Notes: a model not told the origin generated them from the sequence alone. A stretch of 64,000 nt of DNA from Spirochaetia bacterium (GCA_965140585.1 OZ223264.1:32001-96000); one strand, 5' to 3'; positions 10,862-32,020 are shown, counted from the first letter of the stretch. Program-made: numbers and translations.

Positions 10862-11134
10862 ATGAATAATCAGTCAGTGAAATATGCATCGGTAATTCTT
10901 ATCTGGGCGGCAGCGCTGCTTCTGTGGATTATCAAAGGGTGGTGGTTTATAACTGCGGCTCTGTTTCTGCTGCATTTTTTTGAAACAGTGTTTACAGGAA
11001 TCAGGACAGGAAAAGAACATGGTCTGAGTCGGGGGTATTCGATTATTATGTCAATGGCCTTCGGTATTGTCTGGTGGAAACCTCTAAATGATGAGTATAA
11101 AAAGAAAAACATTCCGGAGGACTGCGAAGAGTGA
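10862..11134 (+). CDS. Small membrane protein
   Basis: Hydrophobic segments, LHFFE motif, GAGG RBS, overlaps the AOR start. Confidence 0.65.
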   Translation: MNNQSVKYASVILIWAAALLLWIIKGWWFITAALFLLHFFETVFTGIRTGKEHGLSRGYSIIMSMAFGIVWWKPLNDEYKKKNIPEDCEE

Positions 11135-13131
11135 AAGGTTATATAGGAAAAATTCTGGTTGCTGATCTCGGATCAGGTAAATGTGAAATTGAAGCTGTTC
11201 CCGAGAAGGTATATGAAGAGGTTCTCTCGGGAGTAGGCCTTGGTGCCTGGTACCTCTGCAGGAATATTCCGGCCGGTGCAGATCCGCTTGGTCCGCTAAA
11301 TATTCTAGGATTTACATCCGGTCTTCTTACGGGAACAGGCTCTGTCATGACCGGCAGGTGGATGGCAGTCTGCAAATCACCGCTTACCGGTGGATGGGGA
11401 GATTCCAATTGCGGCGGAAATCTGGCACCGGCAATCAAGCAGTGCGGTGTTGATGCAATATTTATCAAGGGGCAGGCGGCCGAACCCGTTTACCTGTATA
11501 TGGATAACCGGGGAGCGGAGATCCGCCCGGCTGCAGACTTTTGGGGGCTTGATGCAATCGAAGCCGAAGAGCGGCTGATAAAGGAAAACTGGAAAAAGAA
11601 GAAGCCGGCTGCTGCCGTAATCGGACCATCTGCTGAAAAGCTGTCGCTGATATCCGGCATATCCAATGACCTTGGTCGGTATGCCGCGCGTTCGGGCGTC
11701 GGTGCTGTAATGGGTTCAAAGAAACTTAAGGCGGTGGTTCTTGCCGGAACCAAGCAGGTTAAGGCAGATAATCCGGAAAAGATTAAGGAACTGAGTAAGG
11801 AGTATTCCCGGAAGGTAAGAAAGATGAACGCGCCCAGCGTATTCACCGGTGCCCTGCTTCCTGTGCTTGGAAAGGTAATGGGCAGCCTGAAAAGTGTTGC
11901 GCCTCTGGATGGAATGCTAACCGCAATGCTTCTTAGAAAATGGGGTACGGTGATGAACAATACACTGGCCGTCATGAATGGTGATGCCCCGATTAAGAAC
12001 TGGTCCGGTTCGGAAAAAGATTATAATTTTAAATACTACAGACAGATCAATCCCGATAAGTTCATTGCCCGTGAGCAGACCAAATATCACTGCTATTCCT
12101 GCATAATCGGCTGCGGGGGAATGTGTTCAATAAAGGATATCAGGGACGGAAAATATTCCCATACCCATAAACCCGAGTATGAAACGGCAATGATGTTCGG
12201 CGGTCTTCTGATGAATAAGGACCGTGATGCAATCTTTTATGCAAACGAACTCTGCAACCGCTACGGTCTTGATACCATTTCAGCGGGAACTGTAATAGCA
12301 TTTGCAATTGAATGTTACGAGAACGGGATTCTCACGGATGAGGATACATACGGTCTGAAACTTAACTGGGGCAGCAGCGATGCCGTCATAAGTCTTCTTG
12401 AAAAAATTGCAAACCGCGAGCCGGGTCTTGGTGATATCCTTGCCGACGGTGTCAAAGCCGCAGCTGAAAAGATAGGTAAGGGTTCTGAAAAATATGCTGT
12501 TCATGCCGGCGGGCAGGAGCTTCCGGCACATGACCCGAAGATTGATCCGATGCTTGCCCAGACCTATGGAATAGATCCGACTCCGGGCCGGCATACTACC
12601 AGCAGCGGCTTGTACTATACTTCCTCATTTCTGTGGCAGTATGTTTCATGGCTTCCCTCATTCAGGCTGTATTCTAAAAGTAAGGAATACATCCCTTCTA
12701 TGGAAGAAACAATGAAAAATGTGGCTTATACATCGTTTAAGATGCTGATCGATGGAACCGGCAGCTGCTATTACGCTATGCTGATGGGTGTCAGGTATTT
12801 CAGAATTTTTGATTTCCTGAATGCTGCAACCGGATGGAACAAGACTCCCGATGAATATATGGAAATAGGAAAGCGGATGCAGAATCTGCGTCAGCTGTTT
12901 AATGCAATACATTCTGTGGATGTTAACAGCTTTAAGCCCCATGCAAGAGTTTACGGGGCGGAGCCTCTTGTAAGCGGACATAATAAAAATATTACGGTTG
13001 ATATTGACGGGATGATTGAACTGTATAAGGAAGCCTGGGGCTGGGATGCTGAAAGCGGATACCCCACTGAAGAAACCGTTAACAAATACGGACTTGAACA
13101 GCTGCTTGATAAGGAGGACCTGTATGCCTGA
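11131..13131 (+). CDS. aor: Aldehyde:ferredoxin oxidoreductase family (tungstopterin) enzyme
   Basis: KSPLTG.WGDSNCGG, AARSGVGAVMGSKKLKA, C..C...C, EYET, GLDTIS, HDP. Confidence 0.92.
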   Translation: MKGYIGKILVADLGSGKCEIEAVPEKVYEEVLSGVGLGAWYLCRNIPAGADPLGPLNILGFTSGLLTGTGSVMTGRWMAVCKSPLTGGWGDSNCGGNLAPAIKQCGVDAIFIKGQAAEPVYLYMDNRGAEIRPAADFWGLDAIEAEERLIKENWKKKKPAAAVIGPSAEKLSLISGISNDLGRYAARSGVGAVMGSKKLKAVVLAGTKQVKADNPEKIKELSKEYSRKVRKMNAPSVFTGALLPVLGKVMGSLKSVAPLDGMLTAMLLRKWGTVMNNTLAVMNGDAPIKNWSGSEKDYNFKYYRQINPDKFIAREQTKYHCYSCIIGCGGMCSIKDIRDGKYSHTHKPEYETAMMFGGLLMNKDRDAIFYANELCNRYGLDTISAGTVIAFAIECYENGILTDEDTYGLKLNWGSSDAVISLLEKIANREPGLGDILADGVKAAAEKIGKGSEKYAVHAGGQELPAHDPKIDPMLAQTYGIDPTPGRHTTSSGLYYTSSFLWQYVSWLPSFRLYSKSKEYIPSMEETMKNVAYTSFKMLIDGTGSCYYAMLMGVRYFRIFDFLNAATGWNKTPDEYMEIGKRMQNLRQLFNAIHSVDVNSFKPHARVYGAEPLVSGHNKNITVDIDGMIELYKEAWGWDAESGYPTEETVNKYGLEQLLDKEDLYA

Positions 13132-24638: not shown

Positions 24639-26444
24639 TTGAAATATTTGATTGCAGCTTTGCCTATTCTTTTTATTTTTACCGTATTTATTCCTGCTCA
24701 GGAAGTTGATGTAACCGGCGCCGGTTACAGAACTTATCTGGATGGTGCCTGGAGCGTGCAGTACGGTGATGTCGTTGAAGATAATAGCTGGGAAGATGTG
24801 GTCTTTCCGAACCTGAAATTCGATTTTCCGGACAATTCCAATCTTTTATGGTTTCTGCGTACCTTTTCTGTTGATGCTTCCATACAGGATGAGCCGCTCG
24901 GTCTGTTTCTGGGAAAGCTTCCGGATTCCTGTGAAGTCTATCTGAATGGTTCTCTTCTTCTCCGCAGCGGCCGGCAGGCTCCGGATGAATATTTCCCCGA
25001 AACATTTACAGCTTTTAGTACAATTCTTCCCTCGGGACTGCTTAAATATGATGAAAGTAATGTTTTGCTTTTGAAGGTTTACAGTGAAAGACACACCGGG
25101 GCACTTCCTTCGATGTTTATTTCAACACCCGGGGATGTTAAAACAAAAACTGTAAAAATTAATACTTTTAATTCCTATCTTGGTCTGACTGCAACAGTCA
25201 TAACTCTGCTGACAGCCTTGTATTTCGGCGTTATGTTTATCATGGACAGAAAGACTATCGGATACTTGTATATGGTGATCGGCTCTCTGGGGTTTTCTAT
25301 TAATTCCGGTATCCTGTATATAACCGGCAGTCCGTTTTCCTACCTGACAATGTTTAAGATTTACATCATAGGGCTCTATTGGGGAATTGCCGGTATTCAG
25401 CTGTTTGTTATGTATCTGGGTGAATTTGATCTTAAGCCAAAATCCAGGATTTTTATACTGGCAGTGACAGCGGCTATATCAATTACTGCCATTCTAATGC
25501 CCAATCTTAGGAGTATTCTCTTTTACAATGATAATATTATCTACTTGATCTGGGTAATTCCCATGCTGATCATTCTTCTTTATGTTACTATCAGGGGCAT
25601 CCGGGAAAATGTAAAATTCATGTACTTCATACTTGGCGGTGCGATTGTTGCAATGATGAGCGGCGGAAGAGATATATTGCTTCTGCAGCTGAACATTGCA
25701 CCGGATTTCTATTCAAATCTTATTGGACTCACTGCTCTTATAGTGAGTATTTTCATAACCTATGCTGCACAATTTAACTATAATGAGAAACTTTTAAGGA
25801 TACAGGCTCATAAACTGGCACAGATGACAGAGAATCTGGAAGGGCTCGTAAAGGATCGGACAGAGGAACTGGAGCATGCATATCAGGAGCTTTCACATCA
25901 GGCTGTTACCGATATGCTTACCGGAACATTCAACCGTCTTGAATACAGCCGGGTACTTGAGAGTGAGAATGCACAGTTCAAGCGGACTGGCCAGAATTAC
26001 GCGGTTATTTATATCGACCTTGATAATTTTAAATATATCAACGATACCTACGGTCACGCTTCCGGTGATTTCGTCCTGCTTGAAATATCAAAACTGCTGA
26101 AAGATTGCAAAAGAAGTTCTGATTTTTTATTCAGGATGGGCGGTGATGAATTCCTGATACTTATGACCAATACCAGCTCCGGAAAGGATGCGATTAACCT
26201 TGTCGATCGTATCTATCAGCAGATCGAGAAAAAAGAATACTTAAGACCTGCCTTATCGAAGTTTACCGGTGAAGAGATAGTTTACCCTGAAGGTAAAAAG
26301 CTTTCACTTACAATCGGTATCAGCTCTACAGATATCTCAAATGTTTCATCTCTGCATGATCTGCCCTTCCAGGCTGATATGGCCCTTCTTGATGCAAAAG
26401 TTTCAGGTAAAAATAGATACGCTTTTTATGAGAAGTCATTATAG
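24639..26444 (+). CDS. Membrane-bound diguanylate cyclase (extracellular beta-domain, 7TM, GGDEF)
   Basis: Signal peptide, EVYLNG, about 7 TM, DMLTG.FNR, RMGGDEF. Confidence 0.88.
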   Translation: MKYLIAALPILFIFTVFIPAQEVDVTGAGYRTYLDGAWSVQYGDVVEDNSWEDVVFPNLKFDFPDNSNLLWFLRTFSVDASIQDEPLGLFLGKLPDSCEVYLNGSLLLRSGRQAPDEYFPETFTAFSTILPSGLLKYDESNVLLLKVYSERHTGALPSMFISTPGDVKTKTVKINTFNSYLGLTATVITLLTALYFGVMFIMDRKTIGYLYMVIGSLGFSINSGILYITGSPFSYLTMFKIYIIGLYWGIAGIQLFVMYLGEFDLKPKSRIFILAVTAAISITAILMPNLRSILFYNDNIIYLIWVIPMLIILLYVTIRGIRENVKFMYFILGGAIVAMMSGGRDILLLQLNIAPDFYSNLIGLTALIVSIFITYAAQFNYNEKLLRIQAHKLAQMTENLEGLVKDRTEELEHAYQELSHQAVTDMLTGTFNRLEYSRVLESENAQFKRTGQNYAVIYIDLDNFKYINDTYGHASGDFVLLEISKLLKDCKRSSDFLFRMGGDEFLILMTNTSSGKDAINLVDRIYQQIEKKEYLRPALSKFTGEEIVYPEGKKLSLTIGISSTDISNVSSLHDLPFQADMALLDAKVSGKNRYAFYEKSL

Positions 26445-26454
26445 ATAAATTGAC

Positions 26455-26483
26455 TTGACAATAGTATCACCGGAAAATATTAT
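26455..26483 (+). promoter_or_regulatory. Sigma70 promoter for the riboswitch leader
   Basis: TTGACA-17-TATTAT ending 7 nt before the RNA motif. Confidence 0.7.
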
Positions 26484-26490
26484 GATTCAT

Positions 26491-26590
26491 AACTCCGAAC
26501 CTTTATCTCCTAAAATCCGGAAGGATCATGGGTTGAGGTCGATGGGTTCAACGGGAAACGGTTGTGCCTTCCGTGTTTGAAAAGGAGAAA
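26491..26590 (+). ncRNA. Moco RNA motif riboswitch, P3-less (Wco/tungsten-type) variant
   Basis: 5' ACTCCGA, CCTAA..ATGG, GGGT-hairpin with GAAA loop, 3' GCCTTCCGTGTTTGAAAAGGAG resembling the conserved GCCUCCCGU..UGGAAAGGAG end; upstream of a WtpA-like gene. Confidence 0.8.
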
Positions 26591-26756
26591 ATAAAAAACT
26601 GATCATGGCTTTAATGACCTGAAAAAAGTTTCTTATTAAATTACTCGAAGAAGGATTGATTAAGTAATCAGATCCTGTTCGGGCAATTCACACCTCTTAT
26701 ACAGATTCAGGAAGACAGGACCGTACTCTCGTAAATTTGAAAAGACGGAGGCTTGA

Positions 26757-28079
26757 ATGTCTGAATATCTCGAATATCTGCCAGAATTGAAAAGCACTAC
26801 ACTCTTTCAGGGAATAGGCGACTCTGAATTAATAGCTCTTCTTGATGCAATGAGACCCGAAATTGTCTGCAGGAAGGCCGGCACAGAAGGTGTACCGCAG
26901 ATAGACTTTGATGAAGGTCTATTCTGTGTTGTGCTCAGGGGGAAGCCTCTTGACAAGCTTGCCCCCCGGCCTGATGTTTACAACATGCCTAAAATAACAG
27001 AACCGGGAATGATGATGGGAGAAATTCCCTGTCTGTCTGAAATGCTGAAAAGTCGGGCTCCAAAAATCAGATTCAGAGGCGGCGGGCATGCAGGGCCCGG
27101 ACATGATGACTTTGATCTTTATATGCTTCGAATGAGCGGAGAGATGATTACTCGCTTTCACGGCATAGAGCATAGTGGTGCACAGGGACGGATGCTGCGG
27201 AATTTTCTCGGTATTCTGGCCCAGAAGGTAACTGATGTCCGAAAAGAGAAAGCTCAGCTGAGTTATGATTATAATAAGGCGCTTTCTCCATACCGACTGA
27301 ATATTCTCTGTGCCGGGGTTTCGCTCAAGCTGGTAAAGCAAACAGCTGATATATGGAATAAAATGCATCCTGAGCTTCCGGCGGTTGTTACTACGGGCAG
27401 TTCTGTAGACATTATCCGTGACTGTATAAGCGGTTATCCCTGCGACCTTCTTGTTTCTGCAGATGATTCCATTATTGAATCGATGCTGATGCCTGATTAT
27501 GTTTCGGGTTACCGAATCTGGGGCGGGAATAAAATGGTCATCTGCGGCGAGGGAATTTCTCCTGACAACTGGATTGACAGGCTTCTGGCTTCCGGGGCTT
27601 CATTTAAGCATAAGGACCCTTACGGAGATCCCGGCGGGTACAGGGCTGTTATGGCTATGCTGCTTGCCGATAAAGTTGAACCTGGACTCTCGGGCAGGTT
27701 GATGAATCATCCCGGCCATATCGGCATGGAGAAAAATCCCGGTCCATTTGGAAATATGAAGCCTGCGGATTATTCGTTTACCTATCTTAGTGCAGCTGTT
27801 TCGATGGGAGTCGACTATACTGAACTGCCCGCAGTTATGGATCTTTCTGATCCTGATCTGGCTTCAGAGTATGCCGAAGTAAGTTTTGCTGTTGATAAAG
27901 ATAATACCGTTACAGCAACACCAATTGCCCACGCATTAGCCATTCCGAAAACTTCACTGCATCTTTCTTCCGCTGCGGAATTTGCTGAACTCTTTCTTAA
28001 TATCGATAAATCTAAACACGGTTTTCTGCTTCGTGAGGGAACAGCCGGAACCGATCCTCTGACATTAAAAAACAGATAA
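26757..28079 (+). CDS. Fusion of a Crp/Fnr-like effector domain (no HTH) and a WtpA-type tungstate/molybdate-binding domain
   Basis: N-term LFQGI..EL..LL, PGMMMGE, LRNFLGILAQK; C-term SADD.II, NKMV, DPYGDPGGYRAVMAMLLA, DYSFTYLSAA, ELPAVMDLSDP, PIAHALAIP. Confidence 0.75.
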   Translation: MSEYLEYLPELKSTTLFQGIGDSELIALLDAMRPEIVCRKAGTEGVPQIDFDEGLFCVVLRGKPLDKLAPRPDVYNMPKITEPGMMMGEIPCLSEMLKSRAPKIRFRGGGHAGPGHDDFDLYMLRMSGEMITRFHGIEHSGAQGRMLRNFLGILAQKVTDVRKEKAQLSYDYNKALSPYRLNILCAGVSLKLVKQTADIWNKMHPELPAVVTTGSSVDIIRDCISGYPCDLLVSADDSIIESMLMPDYVSGYRIWGGNKMVICGEGISPDNWIDRLLASGASFKHKDPYGDPGGYRAVMAMLLADKVEPGLSGRLMNHPGHIGMEKNPGPFGNMKPADYSFTYLSAAVSMGVDYTELPAVMDLSDPDLASEYAEVSFAVDKDNTVTATPIAHALAIPKTSLHLSSAAEFAELFLNIDKSKHGFLLREGTAGTDPLTLKNR

Positions 28080-28118
28080 TGTACTTAAAAAAAGTACTGA
28101 TTATAAAAGGAGAAACTA

Positions 28119-29210
28119 ATGAATAACTTGAAAAAAATTGTTTTAGCGATTCTTGTCGGTATATGCATTGCAGCATCTCTTCCGGCGGACGACAGAGTTG
28201 TAAACGTCACTGACATGAGCGGTGACTCGGTTACTGTGAAAGGAGAGGTTCGTAAGATAATTAATCTTTGGCCTGCCGGAACTTCTTCATTCTTTGTTAT
28301 GGGGGCCGGTGATCTGATTGTCGGGCTTGCTGTAAACAGCCCGGCTACTATGAACTCCTGGACAAGGCTCTTCTACCCTGAATGTCAGAGTATTCCGGCT
28401 TTGGGCGGTATTACACCTTCTATAGAGGAGCTGATAAAACTTGATCCGGACCTTGTCATCATTCATCCTTCAAGTGCAAAGGCTGGGTTTGCACAGCAGA
28501 TTCGAGATGTCGGTATTCCTGCAATCAATATTAATTTCAGTGATTATAAAACAATGGTTAAGGCATATTCAGTACTTGGGGAAGTTCTTGGAGGCAAATA
28601 TCAGCAGCGGTTGAGCAAATGGTGTTCTGCAGTAGAATCAAAGCTTTCAAATGTAAGATCTCTTACCGCAGGACTTACAGACTCAGAACGTCCTGTAGTT
28701 TACTATGTTGCCGGCCAGACAGATTCATTGACAAAAACAATGCGTTCAGGCAGTATAATTAATGACTGGGTTGAGTCTGCCGGAGGAGTATATGCTTTTG
28801 ACAGGATGGATGTTCCAGGTTCTGATGTTACTCCTGAGGCTGTATTCGCGCTTAATCCTGATGTTATAATTTGCGGCGGTGTATATCAGCATATAGAAAA
28901 AGAACAGATTTCTGTATCTGAAGGCTGGAATGATCTTCGGGCTGCTGTTGATAAACGTGTATATACTAACCCTTACGGCTGTTTCAACTGGGATCGCTTC
29001 GGTCTGGAAAGTCAGCTTCAGATTAACTATGCCCTCTTAAGGATTCAACCAAAAATAGCTGCTGCTAACGGTATATCTGAAGAGTCAGTAATTGAAGAAA
29101 TTATTGATTTTTACAGTACATATACAGGATTTAATCTGAGCCGTGCACAGGCCGAAAATATGTTTAATGGTTTGACCGCTGACGGGTCACCGGAAATGTC
29201 AGCAAGGTAA
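28119..29210 (+). CDS. ABC substrate-binding protein, helical-backbone (BtuF/FepB/MolA-like) class
   Basis: Signal peptide, VTDMSG, EELIKLDPDLVI, NPDVII, PYG.FNWDR. Confidence 0.85.
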   Translation: MNNLKKIVLAILVGICIAASLPADDRVVNVTDMSGDSVTVKGEVRKIINLWPAGTSSFFVMGAGDLIVGLAVNSPATMNSWTRLFYPECQSIPALGGITPSIEELIKLDPDLVIIHPSSAKAGFAQQIRDVGIPAININFSDYKTMVKAYSVLGEVLGGKYQQRLSKWCSAVESKLSNVRSLTAGLTDSERPVVYYVAGQTDSLTKTMRSGSIINDWVESAGGVYAFDRMDVPGSDVTPEAVFALNPDVIICGGVYQHIEKEQISVSEGWNDLRAAVDKRVYTNPYGCFNWDRFGLESQLQINYALLRIQPKIAAANGISEESVIEEIIDFYSTYTGFNLSRAQAENMFNGLTADGSPEMSAR

Positions 29211-29217
29211 GACTGCT

Positions 29218-30282
29218 TTGACAGATTTAAATTCTGAAAATAAAACTGATCACTCCGCTGCGGGCAGGGTGATCAGTTTCCCTTTTTCATGGATTTTTAT
29301 ACTTTCTCTTCTTGTCCTTTTTATGATGTTTACATTTTCCCTGGCTGTCGGTCGCTACAGTATTCCGGTTGATTATACTCTGCGTATTCTTTTTTCAAAG
29401 ATAATTGATGTAAACAGGATATGGACAGATATTCAGGAGGCGGTTGTTCTTAATCTTAGACTTCCCAGAACTGTTGCCGCCGTAGTAATCGGTGCGGCTT
29501 TATCACTCTCCGGTGCAGCCTACCAGAGTATTTTTAAAAACCCCATGGTATCACCCGATCTCCTGGGAGTTTCTTCCGGTGCCTGTGTGGGAGCTGCACT
29601 TGCAATTCTGTTAAATGCCGGGAATGCAGTTATTCAGCTCAGTGCCTTTACAGGGGGCTTAATTGCTGTAGGAATTACAGTTTCTATTCCAGCACTTATC
29701 CGGAGCAATTCAACCACGGTTCTAGTTCTCTCCGGTATTGTTATCAGCAGTCTAATGTCTTCAATTATGAGTATAATAAAATTTGTAGCTGATACAGATA
29801 CCCAGCTTGCAGAGATAACCTACTGGCTGATGGGCTCTTTTGCTTCTATAAAATTTAAACAGATGCTGCCTGTTCTTCCAACTATTATTATCCCTGCATC
29901 GGTCGTGCTGCTGATGCGGTACAGGCTGAATATTCTTTCTCTAGGTGATAAGGAAGCGAAATCTCTTGGTGTAAATCTTGGTATTACAAGGGGAATCTTC
30001 ATCCTGTGTTCAACTCTTTTAACGGCCGGCTGCGTTTGCTTATCGGGGACTATTGGCTGGGTCGGTCTCGTGATACCTCACACAGCAAGAATGATCATCG
30101 GATCGGATAACAAGAAAATGCTGCCTGTAGCAATGACCTGCGGAGCTGTTTTCATGCTGGTAATTGATATTCTCTGCAGAACAATTACTTCGGCCGAATT
30201 AAGGCTTGGAATTTTAACAGGAATAATCGGTGCTCCGTTTTTTATCTTTATTTTGTTTAAGCAGAAGGACCAGGTAAAATGA
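29218..30282 (+). CDS. FecCD/BtuC family permease
   Basis: LRLPR, SGAAYQ.IFKNP.VSPDLLGVSSGA, GTIGWVGLVIPH. Confidence 0.93.
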   Translation: MTDLNSENKTDHSAAGRVISFPFSWIFILSLLVLFMMFTFSLAVGRYSIPVDYTLRILFSKIIDVNRIWTDIQEAVVLNLRLPRTVAAVVIGAALSLSGAAYQSIFKNPMVSPDLLGVSSGACVGAALAILLNAGNAVIQLSAFTGGLIAVGITVSIPALIRSNSTTVLVLSGIVISSLMSSIMSIIKFVADTDTQLAEITYWLMGSFASIKFKQMLPVLPTIIIPASVVLLMRYRLNILSLGDKEAKSLGVNLGITRGIFILCSTLLTAGCVCLSGTIGWVGLVIPHTARMIIGSDNKKMLPVAMTCGAVFMLVIDILCRTITSAELRLGILTGIIGAPFFIFILFKQKDQVK

Positions 30283-31049
30283 TTCTTGAAGTAGATGATC
30301 TAAGTTACCGCTATCATAACAGCAGTAATGTTTTTAATGGTGTAAGTTTCTCACTTGATAAGGGCGAGGTCCTTTCGATCCTCGGAGTGAATGGTGCAGG
30401 GAAATCAACCCTGCTGAATTGTATAGGAAACCTTTTTAGACCTGCAACGGGAGAAATCAGGTTAAACGGAAAACTTATGTCTTCGATGCATACAAGAGAT
30501 ATAGCCCGTGTTATTGGTTATGTTCCGCAGAGCCATACTGCGGTATATGGATACAGCGTTAGAGAGTACGTTGTTATGGGAAGGACTCCGTTCATAGGTG
30601 CTTTTGCTGTTCCGGGAAGAGATGATTACAGGATTGCGGATGAAGCGCTTGAAAAAATGGAAATTAAACATTTGGGAAAAAAACTGTATACAGAAATATC
30701 CGGAGGTGAAAGGCAGCAGGTTATGATTGCAAAAATTTTCGCTCAGCAGCCTCAGCTTATTCTTCTTGATGAGCCTACAGCCCACCTGGATTACGGAAAC
30801 CAGCACCGTGTTGTCGAAATGATCCGTAATCTTGCCGGAGAAGGATATGCGATGATAATGACCACTCACAATCCGGAGCATGCGTTTATTCTTGATGGGA
30901 AGGTAGCTATTCTGAACAGGTCCGGTGTTCTGTGTGTTGGTGATTCCGGAGAGACCCTTACCACCGAAATTCTTTCAAGCCTTTATTCGCTGCCGATAAA
31001 AACCAAATATGATGAAGATGCAAAAAGAAATATCTGTGTAGTCTGCTAA
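30279..31049 (+). CDS. ABC ATPase (FecE/BtuD-like)
   Basis: GVNGAGKST, ISGGERQ, LLDEPTAHLD, H-loop. Confidence 0.93.
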   Translation: MILEVDDLSYRYHNSSNVFNGVSFSLDKGEVLSILGVNGAGKSTLLNCIGNLFRPATGEIRLNGKLMSSMHTRDIARVIGYVPQSHTAVYGYSVREYVVMGRTPFIGAFAVPGRDDYRIADEALEKMEIKHLGKKLYTEISGGERQQVMIAKIFAQQPQLILLDEPTAHLDYGNQHRVVEMIRNLAGEGYAMIMTTHNPEHAFILDGKVAILNRSGVLCVGDSGETLTTEILSSLYSLPIKTKYDEDAKRNICVVC

Positions 31050-31114: not shown

Positions 31115-32020
31115 ATGCCTTTTAGAGAAGTTATTATTTTTAATGTTCCTATAGTATACATTTATCCGCTGCTGATTCTGATAATATTCAGCACAGTCCT
31201 TTTTATTGTTCTTAAGAATCTCAAGAAAGCGACGGTTCGTAGAGAAGAGCGTTTTATAAAAAAGGAACATGATAAAGCATTCTCAAAGCCGACTAAAACC
31301 ATGCGGAGAAGCAACGCAAAGAAGCGGAAGTCGGGGCTTGAAAGTATTGAAAAGCAATTTACAATAACAAGAAAAATACTTATACCCTTTATTCTGCTCC
31401 TTGCTCTTATCGTTGCAGTGGTGCCATTTCTTAATCAGGTTCCTGCGGCTATTTTTTCTATGTTCATTGCGGGTTTTTCGCTGATTCTCGGTATTGCAGT
31501 TAAACCTCTGCTGGAAAATGTTTTTGCCGGACTTGTTATCTCTTATTCGAAATCTCTTAATATTGGCGACACTGTAGTTGTTGATGATAAGTACGGTACT
31601 GTTGAAGATATAACCATGTCTTATACAACAATAAAAACCTGGGACTGGAAGCGCTATGTACTTCCTAATTCAAAAATGATTCAGCAGGAATTTTTAAACC
31701 TGACTCTTGTTGAAAAATATCAGTGGGCATATGTAGAGTTTTATGTGGCATATGATACTGATATTGAGAAGGTTAAAGAGATCGCTCTGAAATGTGCTTC
31801 AGAGAATAAACATACTGTTGTTGATAATGTCCCCTATTTCTGGGTTATGGATATGAAGGAAGAAAGCTATGTCTGCTGGATCGCCTCCTGGACTGAAGAT
31901 CCTGCGACTGCATGGTCATTTAAAAACGATATCAGAACTGATATGATCATTGAATTTCAGAAAGCCGGTATTAAATCCTACTCAATTAAATATTTCATGA
32001 ATGAAAATCCCCCAGTATAG
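31115..32020 (+). CDS. mscS: Small-conductance mechanosensitive channel
   Basis: LENVFAGLVI, IGD.V...GTVEDI, LPNS. Confidence 0.85.
   Translation: MPFREVIIFNVPIVYIYPLLILIIFSTVLFIVLKNLKKATVRREERFIKKEHDKAFSKPTKTMRRSNAKKRKSGLESIEKQFTITRKILIPFILLLALIVAVVPFLNQVPAAIFSMFIAGFSLILGIAVKPLLENVFAGLVISYSKSLNIGDTVVVDDKYGTVEDITMSYTTIKTWDWKRYVLPNSKMIQQEFLNLTLVEKYQWAYVEFYVAYDTDIEKVKEIALKCASENKHTVVDNVPYFWVMDMKEESYVCWIASWTEDPATAWSFKNDIRTDMIIEFQKAGIKSYSIKYFMNENPPV

Follow-up and report, generated by a model that had tools for sequence, protein, structure and literature searches.

A P3-less Moco-family riboswitch heads a conserved cassette of MolBC-like transporter genes and a Crp-WtpA-like fusion gene in a Spirochaetia bacterium: a candidate tungsten or molybdenum acquisition system

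In a 64-kb stretch of a 4.85-Mb Spirochaetia bacterium assembly (G000:C1:32001-96000; the whole stretch analyzed is here called the window), a riboswitch of the molybdenum cofactor (Moco) family, RF01055, stands directly before four tightly packed genes. These encode P1, a protein with a Crp-type N-terminal half (P1N) and a WtpA-like C-terminal half (P1C), followed by an exported substrate-binding protein (SBP), a FecCD-type permease, and an ATPase of an ATP-binding cassette (ABC) importer (Table 1). We propose that the riboswitch, which is of the P3-less form, controls a self-contained, MolBC-A-type cassette for acquiring tungsten or molybdenum, with P1 as its dedicated acceptor or sensor, and we put the probability of this reading at roughly 0.6. 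An initial annotation made from the window alone had suggested that the ABC system imports tungstate or molybdate, or a chelated or pterin-bound form in cofactor salvage. That suggestion appears to be the best available and is strengthened by the comparative data, whereas salvage is not required, as MoaC is present in all five cassette genomes tested.

Tungsten and molybdenum normally enter prokaryotes as free oxyanions via ModABC, WtpABC, and TupABC, and MolBC-A of Haemophilus is a little-understood exception. The MolBC-A system and the link between tungsten cofactor (Tuco) riboswitches and importers annotated as "Fe ABC" were already known; the P1 family, its association with a MolBC-like importer, observed at 34 of 48 loci, and the case against an iron reading are new. 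A literature search found no papers describing P1 or reading riboswitch-led FecCD-type importers as tungsten systems. A type II importer that resembles MolBC, is widely distributed in anaerobes, is wired to a cofactor-sensing riboswitch, and is paired with a previously undescribed protein would offer a testable alternative to the published view of iron import by the "Fe ABC" systems that stand under riboswitch control in gut bacteria dependent on tungsten. Cultivable carriers of the cassette or of P1 include Christensenella sp. MSJ-20 and Mangrovibacter yixingensis.

Riboswitch, gene layout, and domain content of the cassette

The RF01055 match reached 70.6 bits (E 5.2e-15), well above the gathering score of 36, covered the full model (positions 1 to 135), and was the single match at gathering level when the entire window was scanned with cmscan. 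Consensus positions of the P3 hairpin appear as a deletion in the cmscan alignment, which assigns the RNA to the P3-less subclass, as the initial annotation had recognized when it called the motif a tungsten-type Moco riboswitch. In Regulski et al. 2008 (PMC2408646), 58 of 176 Moco RNAs are without P3, the P3-less form tracks the use of tungsten cofactor, and it is proposed to be a Tuco-sensing subclass. The promoter-like site upstream matches 11 of 12 consensus positions, and its TTGACA -35 hexamer is invariant in an alignment with three related Spirochaetia loci (L012, L016, and L020). The spacings of the four genes, 39, 7, and -4 bp, were reproduced exactly as they had been annotated.

In the leader, a CCUCU element (26693 to 26697) is complementary to the 3' strand, AGGAG, of the P1 helix of the aptamer (26583 to 26587) and also to the Shine-Dalgarno sequence GGAGG (26747 to 26751). 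The minimum free energy fold of the leader pairs AGGAG with CCUCU and holds the Shine-Dalgarno sequence and the AUG inside a hairpin (z -1.55, not significant); a scan of positions 26604 to 26756 found no terminator-like site. The riboswitch is predicted to be an off-switch with CCUCU as the candidate element that masks the Shine-Dalgarno sequence. Plentiful cofactor would shut the operon, probably by freeing CCUCU to mask the ribosome-binding site, and scarce cofactor would leave the operon expressed.

The WtpA-like domain without WtpBC, noted in the initial annotation, was recovered as a match of P1 residues 181 to 411 to SBP_bac_11 and to the WtpA model TIGR03730 (E 5e-29). P1C begins at about residue 176, behind a soluble N-terminal domain, and the neighboring genes are of the FecCD type, with no WtpB or WtpC. 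The maximum hydropathy of P1 over 19 residues is 1.12, indicating no transmembrane segment and no signal peptide, and the gene 2 product peaks at 2.05 at its N terminus. P1 as an ordinary exported WtpA was rejected on the lack of a signal peptide, and the window protein is predicted to reside in the cytoplasm. Both halves of P1 are strongly conserved in a family alignment of 20 members (A1), and the P1C family profile matches Archaeoglobus fulgidus ModA/WtpA (2onk/3cij) in two stretches with an E value of 3e-47. The motifs AG, GGS, AD, and DPxGYR and two tyrosines (Y..Y) are invariant in P1C across the 20 members. Two acidic residues define the octahedral oxyanion coordination of WtpA-type proteins, according to PMC11350598; a Glu or Asp is found at the putative second carboxylate position ("GMEK") in 18 of the 20 members, as mapped by sequence alignment and residue numbering. 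P1C shares with archaeal WtpA and A. fulgidus ModA the fold family and the DPxGYR, GGS, AD, and tyrosine motifs but differs in being fused to or beside a Crp-type domain, in its tie to a type II importer, and in lacking the export signal and WtpB/WtpC.

The N-terminal half was harder to place. No Pfam family was identified for any of 17 P1 N-terminal domains, and a PF00027 search of the whole genome also missed P1N of the window. A P1N profile search of 1.84 billion representatives gave just 63 clusters at E ≤ 1e-3, including Crp-type helix-turn-helix (HTH) proteins, and a cluster lookup with the P1 homologue P0014 returned its own SBP_bac_11 clusters only. Alignment of profiles with hhalign linked P1N to P0273 (HTH_Crp_2) at 98.4% and to P0297 (cNMP_binding plus HTH_Crp_2) at 92.2% (E 6e-7, 141 columns), so that remote homology to true members of the Crp/FNR effector family extends over the whole P1N domain. 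No significant hhalign match was obtained to the ten cNMP domains of the same genome (probability, 0.2%), and a PDB profile search with P1N gave weak matches to PKA and Crp alone (E 0.05 to 0.6). Because hhalign connects P1N to P0273 and P0297, P1 is, as judged from these profiles, built on an effector domain of the Crp/FNR type that retains the C-helix, the DNA-binding domain being replaced by a WtpA-like one.

The FecCD-type assignment of the importer, also part of the initial annotation, was upheld by the Pfam score of gene 3 (Table 1). Among solved structures, the best match of the permease is Haemophilus influenzae MolB (HI1471; 225.6 bits), ahead of HmuU (173.8) and BtuC (154), and that of the ATPase is MolC (HI1470; 157.1 bits), the next type II ATPase being FhuC (119.4). 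At 256 amino acids, the ATPase has no regulatory C-terminal domain. A paralogous riboswitch-led permease of the same genome, 45% identical to the gene 3 product, likewise matches MolB best (244.8 bits; next, 166.2). The gene 2 SBP belongs to a family with 64% mean column identity, and its best solved relative is the unnamed 4ovk (71.8 bits); PDB codes 4OVK, 4PAG, 9HRJ, and 9HT5 were mentioned in none of the papers searched. As had been anticipated from the sequence, homologues of this protein carry the automatic name "iron complex transport system substrate-binding protein."

TABLE 1 Coordinates and supporting evidence for the cassette and its leader in the window
Feature	Position	Strand	Evidence
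Sigma-70-type promoter-like site TTGACA-17 nt-TATTAT	26455..26483	+	Consensus match alone
Moco/Tuco riboswitch aptamer RF01055, P3-less	26481..26603	+	cmscan
Leader and expression platform	26604..26756	+	CCUCU complementary to two sites
Gene 1 (P1), 440 aa	26757..28079	+	Open reading frame (ORF) call
Gene 1 N-terminal domain P1N, aa 1-175, divergent Crp/FNR-type effector (cNMP-binding-like) domain with C-helix	26757..27281	+	Profile search, hhalign
Gene 1 C-terminal domain P1C, aa ~176-440, WtpA/ModA-like oxyanion-binding domain	27282..28079	+	SBP_bac_11, TIGR03730
Gene 2, exported Peripla_BP_2 substrate-binding (lipo)protein	28119..29210	+	PF01497, N-terminal hydrophobic signal
Gene 3, FecCD-type (type II) ABC permease, MolB-like	29218..30282	+	PF01032, 287 bits
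Gene 4, ABC ATPase, MolC-like, 256 aa	30279..31049	+	PF00005

Conserved linkage and regulation in related loci

A database search with P1 gave 180 matches at E ≤ 1e-3. Among the 120 matches listed, identities were 37% to 69%, the window's own protein excepted; the full-length members among them (~436 amino acids, covering 96% to 99% of the query) showed 43% to 69% identity and belong to Spirochaetia, Clostridia, Atribacterota, Dehalococcoidales, and Deltaproteobacteria, and stand-alone forms of ~260 amino acids aligned with the C-terminal half of P1 only. A pattern scan with one genome per species yielded 48 loci in Spirochaetia, Clostridia (Syntrophomonadaceae, Peptococcaceae, Lachnospiraceae, and Christensenella sp. 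MSJ-20), Atribacterota, Dehalococcoidales, Deltaproteobacteria/Adiutrix, and Mangrovibacter. The closest named relative among them is a Spirochaetia metagenome-assembled genome (MAG), with 93% identity for gene 1.

The gene neighborhoods of homologues, a check proposed in the initial annotation, bore the linkage out. In 34 of the 48 loci, P1 or its halves lie on the same strand as, and within 4.5 kb of, a Peripla_BP_2 gene and/or a FecCD permease gene; one further locus has the ATPase only, and 13 have P1 or half of P1 without ABC neighbors. The gene order varies among P1-SBP-permease-ATPase, SBP-permease-ATPase-P1, and split P1N and P1C followed by permease-ATPase-SBP; in addition, P0263 is a fusion in the opposite order (P1C-P1N), and some forms carry P1N in tandem (P1N-P1N). 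Clustering of all neighbors showed no other gene recurring in more than 4 loci, so the four genes form a self-contained module. P1 fused into longer proteins or to a transporter subunit was not found, which is weak evidence, and a search of PLSDB plasmids returned distant WtpA-like matches only and no P1.

Of 401 genomes of the class, 4 encode a full-length P1, and these belong to a single family; the number is too small for a test of co-occurrence with aldehyde ferredoxin oxidoreductase (AOR). P1 is thus patchy, yet copies from Spirochaetia, Clostridia, and Dehalococcoidales are 60% to 70% identical across phyla, which points to spread of the cassette by horizontal transfer. A TonB-dependent receptor gene precedes the cassette in four diderm loci. 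Genes for ExbB, ExbD, and TonB follow it in L048, as identified by Pfam; the same set in L050 was recognized by N-terminal similarity only, and in L046 the cassette is followed by a TonB_C protein. Comparison of the receptors pointed to no particular substrate class. In a Eubacteriaceae MAG (L042), the order is riboswitch-P1C-methyltransferase-permease-ATPase-SBP. The enterobacterium M. yixingensis carries a full-length P1 (46% identity) directly after pstSCAB-phoU, with no FecCD genes nearby (L036:2083-8323).

RF01055 was found at gathering score, upstream and in the correct orientation, in 11 of the 48 loci (L012, L015, L016, L020, L021, L024, L029, L033, L041, L042, and L057). When 15 loci were rescanned with the Rfam model in E-value mode at E ≤ 0.1, eight showed a full-length RF01055 in the same place at 28 to 35 bits and E ≤ 0.015 (L013, L014, L017, L019, L023, L025, L027, and L028), and none was found at that threshold in the other seven: L018, L022, L026 (masked bases just upstream), L032, L035 (contig end), L037, and L038. 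A Moco-family riboswitch therefore precedes the cassette in 19 of the 48 loci at both thresholds combined. Eleven of these RNAs form a divergent class at 28 to 36 bits (L013, L014, L017, L019, L021, L023, L024, L025, L027, L028, and L029), with a 7-bp hairpin at the P3 position supported by compensatory changes and a non-GNRA loop at P4 (UUAGCC-like). In this set the divergent class occurs only before the P1 cassette and only in Clostridia and Atribacterota, and standard annotation would miss most of its copies. Because these 11 low-scoring copies carry a hairpin at the P3 position, the cassette is not tied to the P3-less form alone. RF01055 is absent from four of five diderm host genomes, so the lack of a riboswitch at the diderm cassettes is uninformative.

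Control by cobalamin or Fur, which the initial annotation had named among the findings that would speak against its view, was not seen. Neither the window nor any of the 48 loci gave a cobalamin riboswitch at gathering score. A search of positions 26300 to 26760 of the window for 7-1-7 Fur-like sites, allowing 3 mismatches at most, found none, and no exact site was found across 102 loci; the test is weak, since the consensus used might be unsuited to these phyla. The cassette differs from the cobalamin importer BtuCD-F in its regulation, and also in its SBP, which matches BtuF at only ~24 bits.

Substrate and role of P1

On the preferred reading, the exported Peripla_BP_2 protein would capture a tungsten species, and the MolB-like permease and MolC-like ATPase, together a type II ABC importer, would bring it in. 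P1, a soluble protein, would then receive or sense the oxyanion via its WtpA-like domain, and the Crp-like half may bind a second ligand and probably dimerizes P1. The species imported could be a free oxyanion, a chelate, or a pterin-bound form. HmuS, PhuS, and ShuS are cytoplasmic heme-binding cargo acceptors encoded in the heme uptake operons of type II importers. Like P1, they are soluble proteins from a type II importer operon that are proposed to take over the cargo; they have no sequence relation to P1, for which the acceptor role is a prediction, and differ also in that some P1N homologues are secreted.

The metabolism of the hosts was assessed in five cassette genomes (via L033, L028, L018, L015, and L030). 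MoaC is encoded in all five, and the genome of the window has MoaA, MoaC, and MoeA. Every one of the five also encodes AOR-family proteins (between 1 and 8 matches per genome), against 5 of 14 control genomes, which speaks for the tungsten reading.

Several observations weigh against a tungsten or molybdenum importer with P1 as its acceptor. The gene 2 SBP is not an orthologue of MolA, which ranks ninth (3psa; 31.6 bits), and the named proteins nearest to it are binders of the iron or siderophore type and also of heme. MolB is likewise the top match of a control FecCD permease that the genome encodes with no riboswitch (168.9 versus 151.6 bits). P1C scores far below the family cutoffs of both WtpA models (TIGR03730, 101.3 versus 242.75 bits; NF003196, 99.2 versus 355), has lost the first serine of AGS (AGV or AGC), and is shorter in the segment that separates the two putative carboxylate positions, in all of which it departs from archaeal WtpA. 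The secreted P1N forms P0248, P0251, and L056 ill fit a purely cytoplasmic acceptor. A riboswitch was not found in 29 of the 48 loci, 7 of them tested at E ≤ 0.1 and the others at gathering score only, and with 11 of the 19 riboswitches divergent and bearing the P3-position hairpin, the specificity for tungsten versus molybdenum is not uniform. Two similar operons of Eubacterium limosum are read by their authors as iron uptake for Fe-rich enzymes (PMC11725836). Finally, all five tested cassette genomes already have TupA- or ModA-like binding proteins (three TupA-like and the other two strong ModA-like).

Because the control permease also prefers MolB, by a narrower margin, the MolB likeness of the cassette is real but partly generic. 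The cassette as the sole route for tungsten or molybdenum was rejected on the presence of TupA- or ModA-like proteins in the five tested hosts. Since the hosts are tungsten users with their own pterin synthesis and a canonical oxyanion transporter, an additional metal form or an auxiliary role is favored.

The H. influenzae system is one of the closest known systems. The analogy to MolABC drawn in the initial annotation held for the permease and the ATPase and extends to a modA gene (HI1469), which stands beside molABC in the cluster HI1469-HI1475 (PMC3928620); it did not hold for the SBP. By this analogy, the mol cluster may be counted in support of the tungsten or molybdenum reading. MolBC-A (HI1470/HI1471/HI1472) and the cassette thus have in common the kind of transport core, a Peripla_BP_2-type binding protein, a ModA/WtpA-family gene in the cluster, and coexistence with a canonical high-affinity oxyanion transporter (for MolBC-A, see PMC4031551). 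The ModA-family partner in the window differs in having no signal peptide and in its fusion to a Crp-type domain, and the cassette differs in standing under a Moco/Tuco riboswitch and, in its diderm versions, in adding a TonB-dependent receptor. According to PMC4031551, MolBC-A is a low-affinity molybdate importer that is useful at high molybdate, in contrast to the riboswitch-controlled cassette, for which induction under scarcity would be expected.

Iron is the published alternative. The cassette could be an iron or iron-chelate importer within a tungsten cofactor regulon, feeding Fe-S-rich tungstoenzymes, with P1 in an unrelated role; we consider this unlikely. In E. limosum, five P3-less RF01055 riboswitches were reported, two of them before the "Fe ABC-type" operons fetABC1 and fetABC2 (PMC11725836, 2024). 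Like the organism of the window, E. limosum relies on AOR-family tungstoenzymes and has a riboswitch-controlled tupABC, and in both a P3-less RF01055 stands directly upstream of an iron-annotated ABC importer; the difference lies in the interpretation as iron uptake (PMC11725836). This published reading, the named relatives of the SBP that bind iron, siderophore, or heme, and the combination of TonB-dependent receptor with ExbB, ExbD, and TonB in diderm cassettes, as in siderophore systems, all speak for iron. However, no partner accompanies the importer through the different phyla as constantly as the WtpA-like oxyanion-binding domain, MolBC is the closest match of the transport core, and the leader of the cassette shows no Fur-like box in the weak test described above. 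Moco/Tuco riboswitches, where tested or inferred, turn genes off at plentiful cofactor, according to PMC2408646. In PMC11725836, fetABC1 and focA transcripts rose on tungsten limitation, and an iron line for active tungstoenzymes should do the opposite; the rise of fetABC1 supports the tungsten-scavenging reading. The reference list of PMC2408646 holds an FhuD structure paper uncited in the main text, and the supplement may already list such binders.

Cargo can also be sought on the cofactor side. Salvage of the cofactor or of a pterin precursor (Tuco, molybdopterin [MPT], or cyclic pyranopterin monophosphate [cPMP]), with P1N holding the pterin or nucleotide moiety and P1C binding the metal-oxo group at the other end, would parallel the cobalamin riboswitches that control BtuB and BtuFCD, and the riboswitch ligand would equal the imported molecule. 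Large cargo resembling cofactors is typical of type II importers and TonB-dependent receptors, P1N belongs to the Crp type of domains that bind small molecules and lies directly before MoeA in L053, and another riboswitch-led ABC operon, described below, encodes an exported protein with a molybdopterin-binding domain. De novo pterin synthesis is nevertheless present in all five tested genomes and in the genome of the window, no auxotroph was seen, and the SBP offers no pointer to pterin. The molybdenum/tungsten cofactor is, moreover, very labile. We therefore regard salvage as very doubtful, and a service to pterin auxotrophs found no support, with MoaC in 5 of 5 genomes.

The role of P1 admits a further alternative that leaves the substrate unchanged, namely, that P1 is a dimeric regulator that senses cytoplasmic tungstate with its WtpA-like domain, or another effector with its Crp-like domain, and throttles the transporter or another target. 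It would then replace the TOBE-domain trans-inhibition of type I ModC, consistent with the MolC-like ATPase without a regulatory C-terminal domain, with the homology of P1N to a regulatory domain family, and with the fusion of a P1N-like domain to a Crp-type HTH in P0273; how MolBC-A is regulated is not understood, according to PMC4031551. The secreted P1N forms and the P1C-methyltransferase fusions (L047 and L052) fit cargo handling better, and a P1 fusion to a transporter subunit was not found, which is weak evidence. Cargo handling by P1 is favored over pure regulation because of the secreted P1N, the methyltransferase fusions and neighbors of P1C, and P1N beside MoeA, and a regulatory P1 seems improbable.

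The relatives of the two P1 halves are themselves varied. P1N homologues with Sec-type signal peptides were identified in P0248, P0251, and L056, the occurrence of a Crp-type domain outside the cytoplasm being unusual. The last of these is a Thermodesulfobacteriota locus (L056:3128-11551) with the order TonB-dependent receptor, secreted P1N, exported near-WtpA (253.7 bits), two FecCD permeases, ATPase, and Peripla_BP_2. P1N is followed by a methyltransferase in L057 (6986 to 8485), is fused to NTP_transf_5 nucleotidyltransferases in P0258 and P0260, and directly precedes MoeA in L053. The WtpA-like domain is fused to a class I S-adenosylmethionine-dependent methyltransferase in L047 (2142 to 3791) and L052 (6968 to 8653) and adjoins one in L042 (6962 to 8667).

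A more specific version of tungsten import, compatible with the secreted P1N forms and with the methyltransferase and MoeA neighbors, is tentatively possible, in which the cassette is the uptake arm of a previously undescribed pathway for complexed tungsten: the metal could be bound in a "tungstophore" chelate or to a pterin, or be present as a thio- or organo-tungstate. The TonB-dependent receptor of diderms and the type II importer would carry the complex, and P1 would take it apart, the Crp-like module holding the organic carrier and the WtpA-like module capturing the released tungstate for MoeA; DUF364 and the P1C-fused methyltransferases would be alternative release enzymes. If so, complexed tungsten would for the first time have an uptake route dedicated to it, and many "iron complex" ABC systems behind Moco/Tuco riboswitches would be misannotated tungsten or molybdenum systems.

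Riboswitch regulon and neighboring genes

The genome of the window has six RF01055 copies. Besides the cassette, their targets, as identified by ORF calling and Pfam, are a Peripla_BP_2-FecCD-ATPase-DUF364 operon, an SBP_bac_8 operon, tupABC with moeA/moaA/moaC/moaB, ferredoxin plus AOR, and an NAD-dependent aldehyde dehydrogenase. The first of these (G000:C3:56352-60194; L008:2001-5846) is led by a 62-bit RF01055 and encodes a Peripla_BP_2 protein, a MolB-like FecCD permease, an ATPase, and a DUF364/DUF4213 protein. By analogy, this second riboswitch-led MolB-like importer with DUF364 may count in favor of a tungsten or molybdenum role for the cassette. Genome context ties DUF364 to tungstate, molybdate, and vanadium transport (PMC2954201), and a Methanococcus maripaludis DUF364 gene in a "modABC" operon is cofit with nifH (bioRxiv 10.1101/2024.03.05.583561).

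The initial annotation had suggested that the importer supplies the AOR at 11131. The gene is a real AOR (11131 to 13131; AFOR_N and AFOR_C by Pfam), but the link is not specific: by tblastn, the genome encodes eight AOR paralogues, cmscan found no riboswitch for this one in the window, and only the AOR at G000:C9:227904 follows a riboswitch. With eight paralogues, the organism depends heavily on tungsten.

Of 11 genomes in the family of the organism, 10 carry the riboswitch, with 51 copies in total. The first downstream gene was classed in 27 loci outside the genome of the window by BLAST against a reference set and by eye. AOR, or a ferredoxin before AOR, came first in seven loci, the SBP_bac_8 type in four, an adenylosuccinate-lyase-like gene in four, P1 in three, Peripla_BP_2 of the DUF364-operon type in three, TupA in two, and aldehyde dehydrogenase in one; three were unassigned. 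The DUF364-operon-type SBP is thus found behind a riboswitch in three relatives. The lyase-like gene (Lyase_1 plus ASL_C) lies in L080, L084, L094, and L100 (genomes G001, G091, G184, and G066).

The highest-scoring RF01055 of the genome (74.6 bits) leads a three-gene operon (G000:C9:526535-531534; L007:101-5099) for an SBP_bac_8 protein, a 465-amino-acid exported protein with PF00174 (Oxidoreductase molybdopterin-binding), and a fused double BPD_transp_1 permease. A first gene of this type follows the riboswitch in four relatives, and the operon is a candidate for extracellular handling of pterin or cofactor. Another copy, on the minus strand (G000:C7:210541-210666; L003 and L011), lies directly before a 482-amino-acid NAD-dependent aldehyde dehydrogenase, a gene identified by reading the sequence, and the same arrangement is seen in a congener (L095). 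The enzyme may be a tungsten-independent backup for AOR when cofactor is short.

Downstream of the cassette, an MscS-type mechanosensitive channel gene (31115 to 32020) lies on the same strand, 65 bp past the ATPase gene, with no terminator-like site found between them by scan. It is retained beside the cassette only in the closest relative, L012, and therefore probably lies outside the module.

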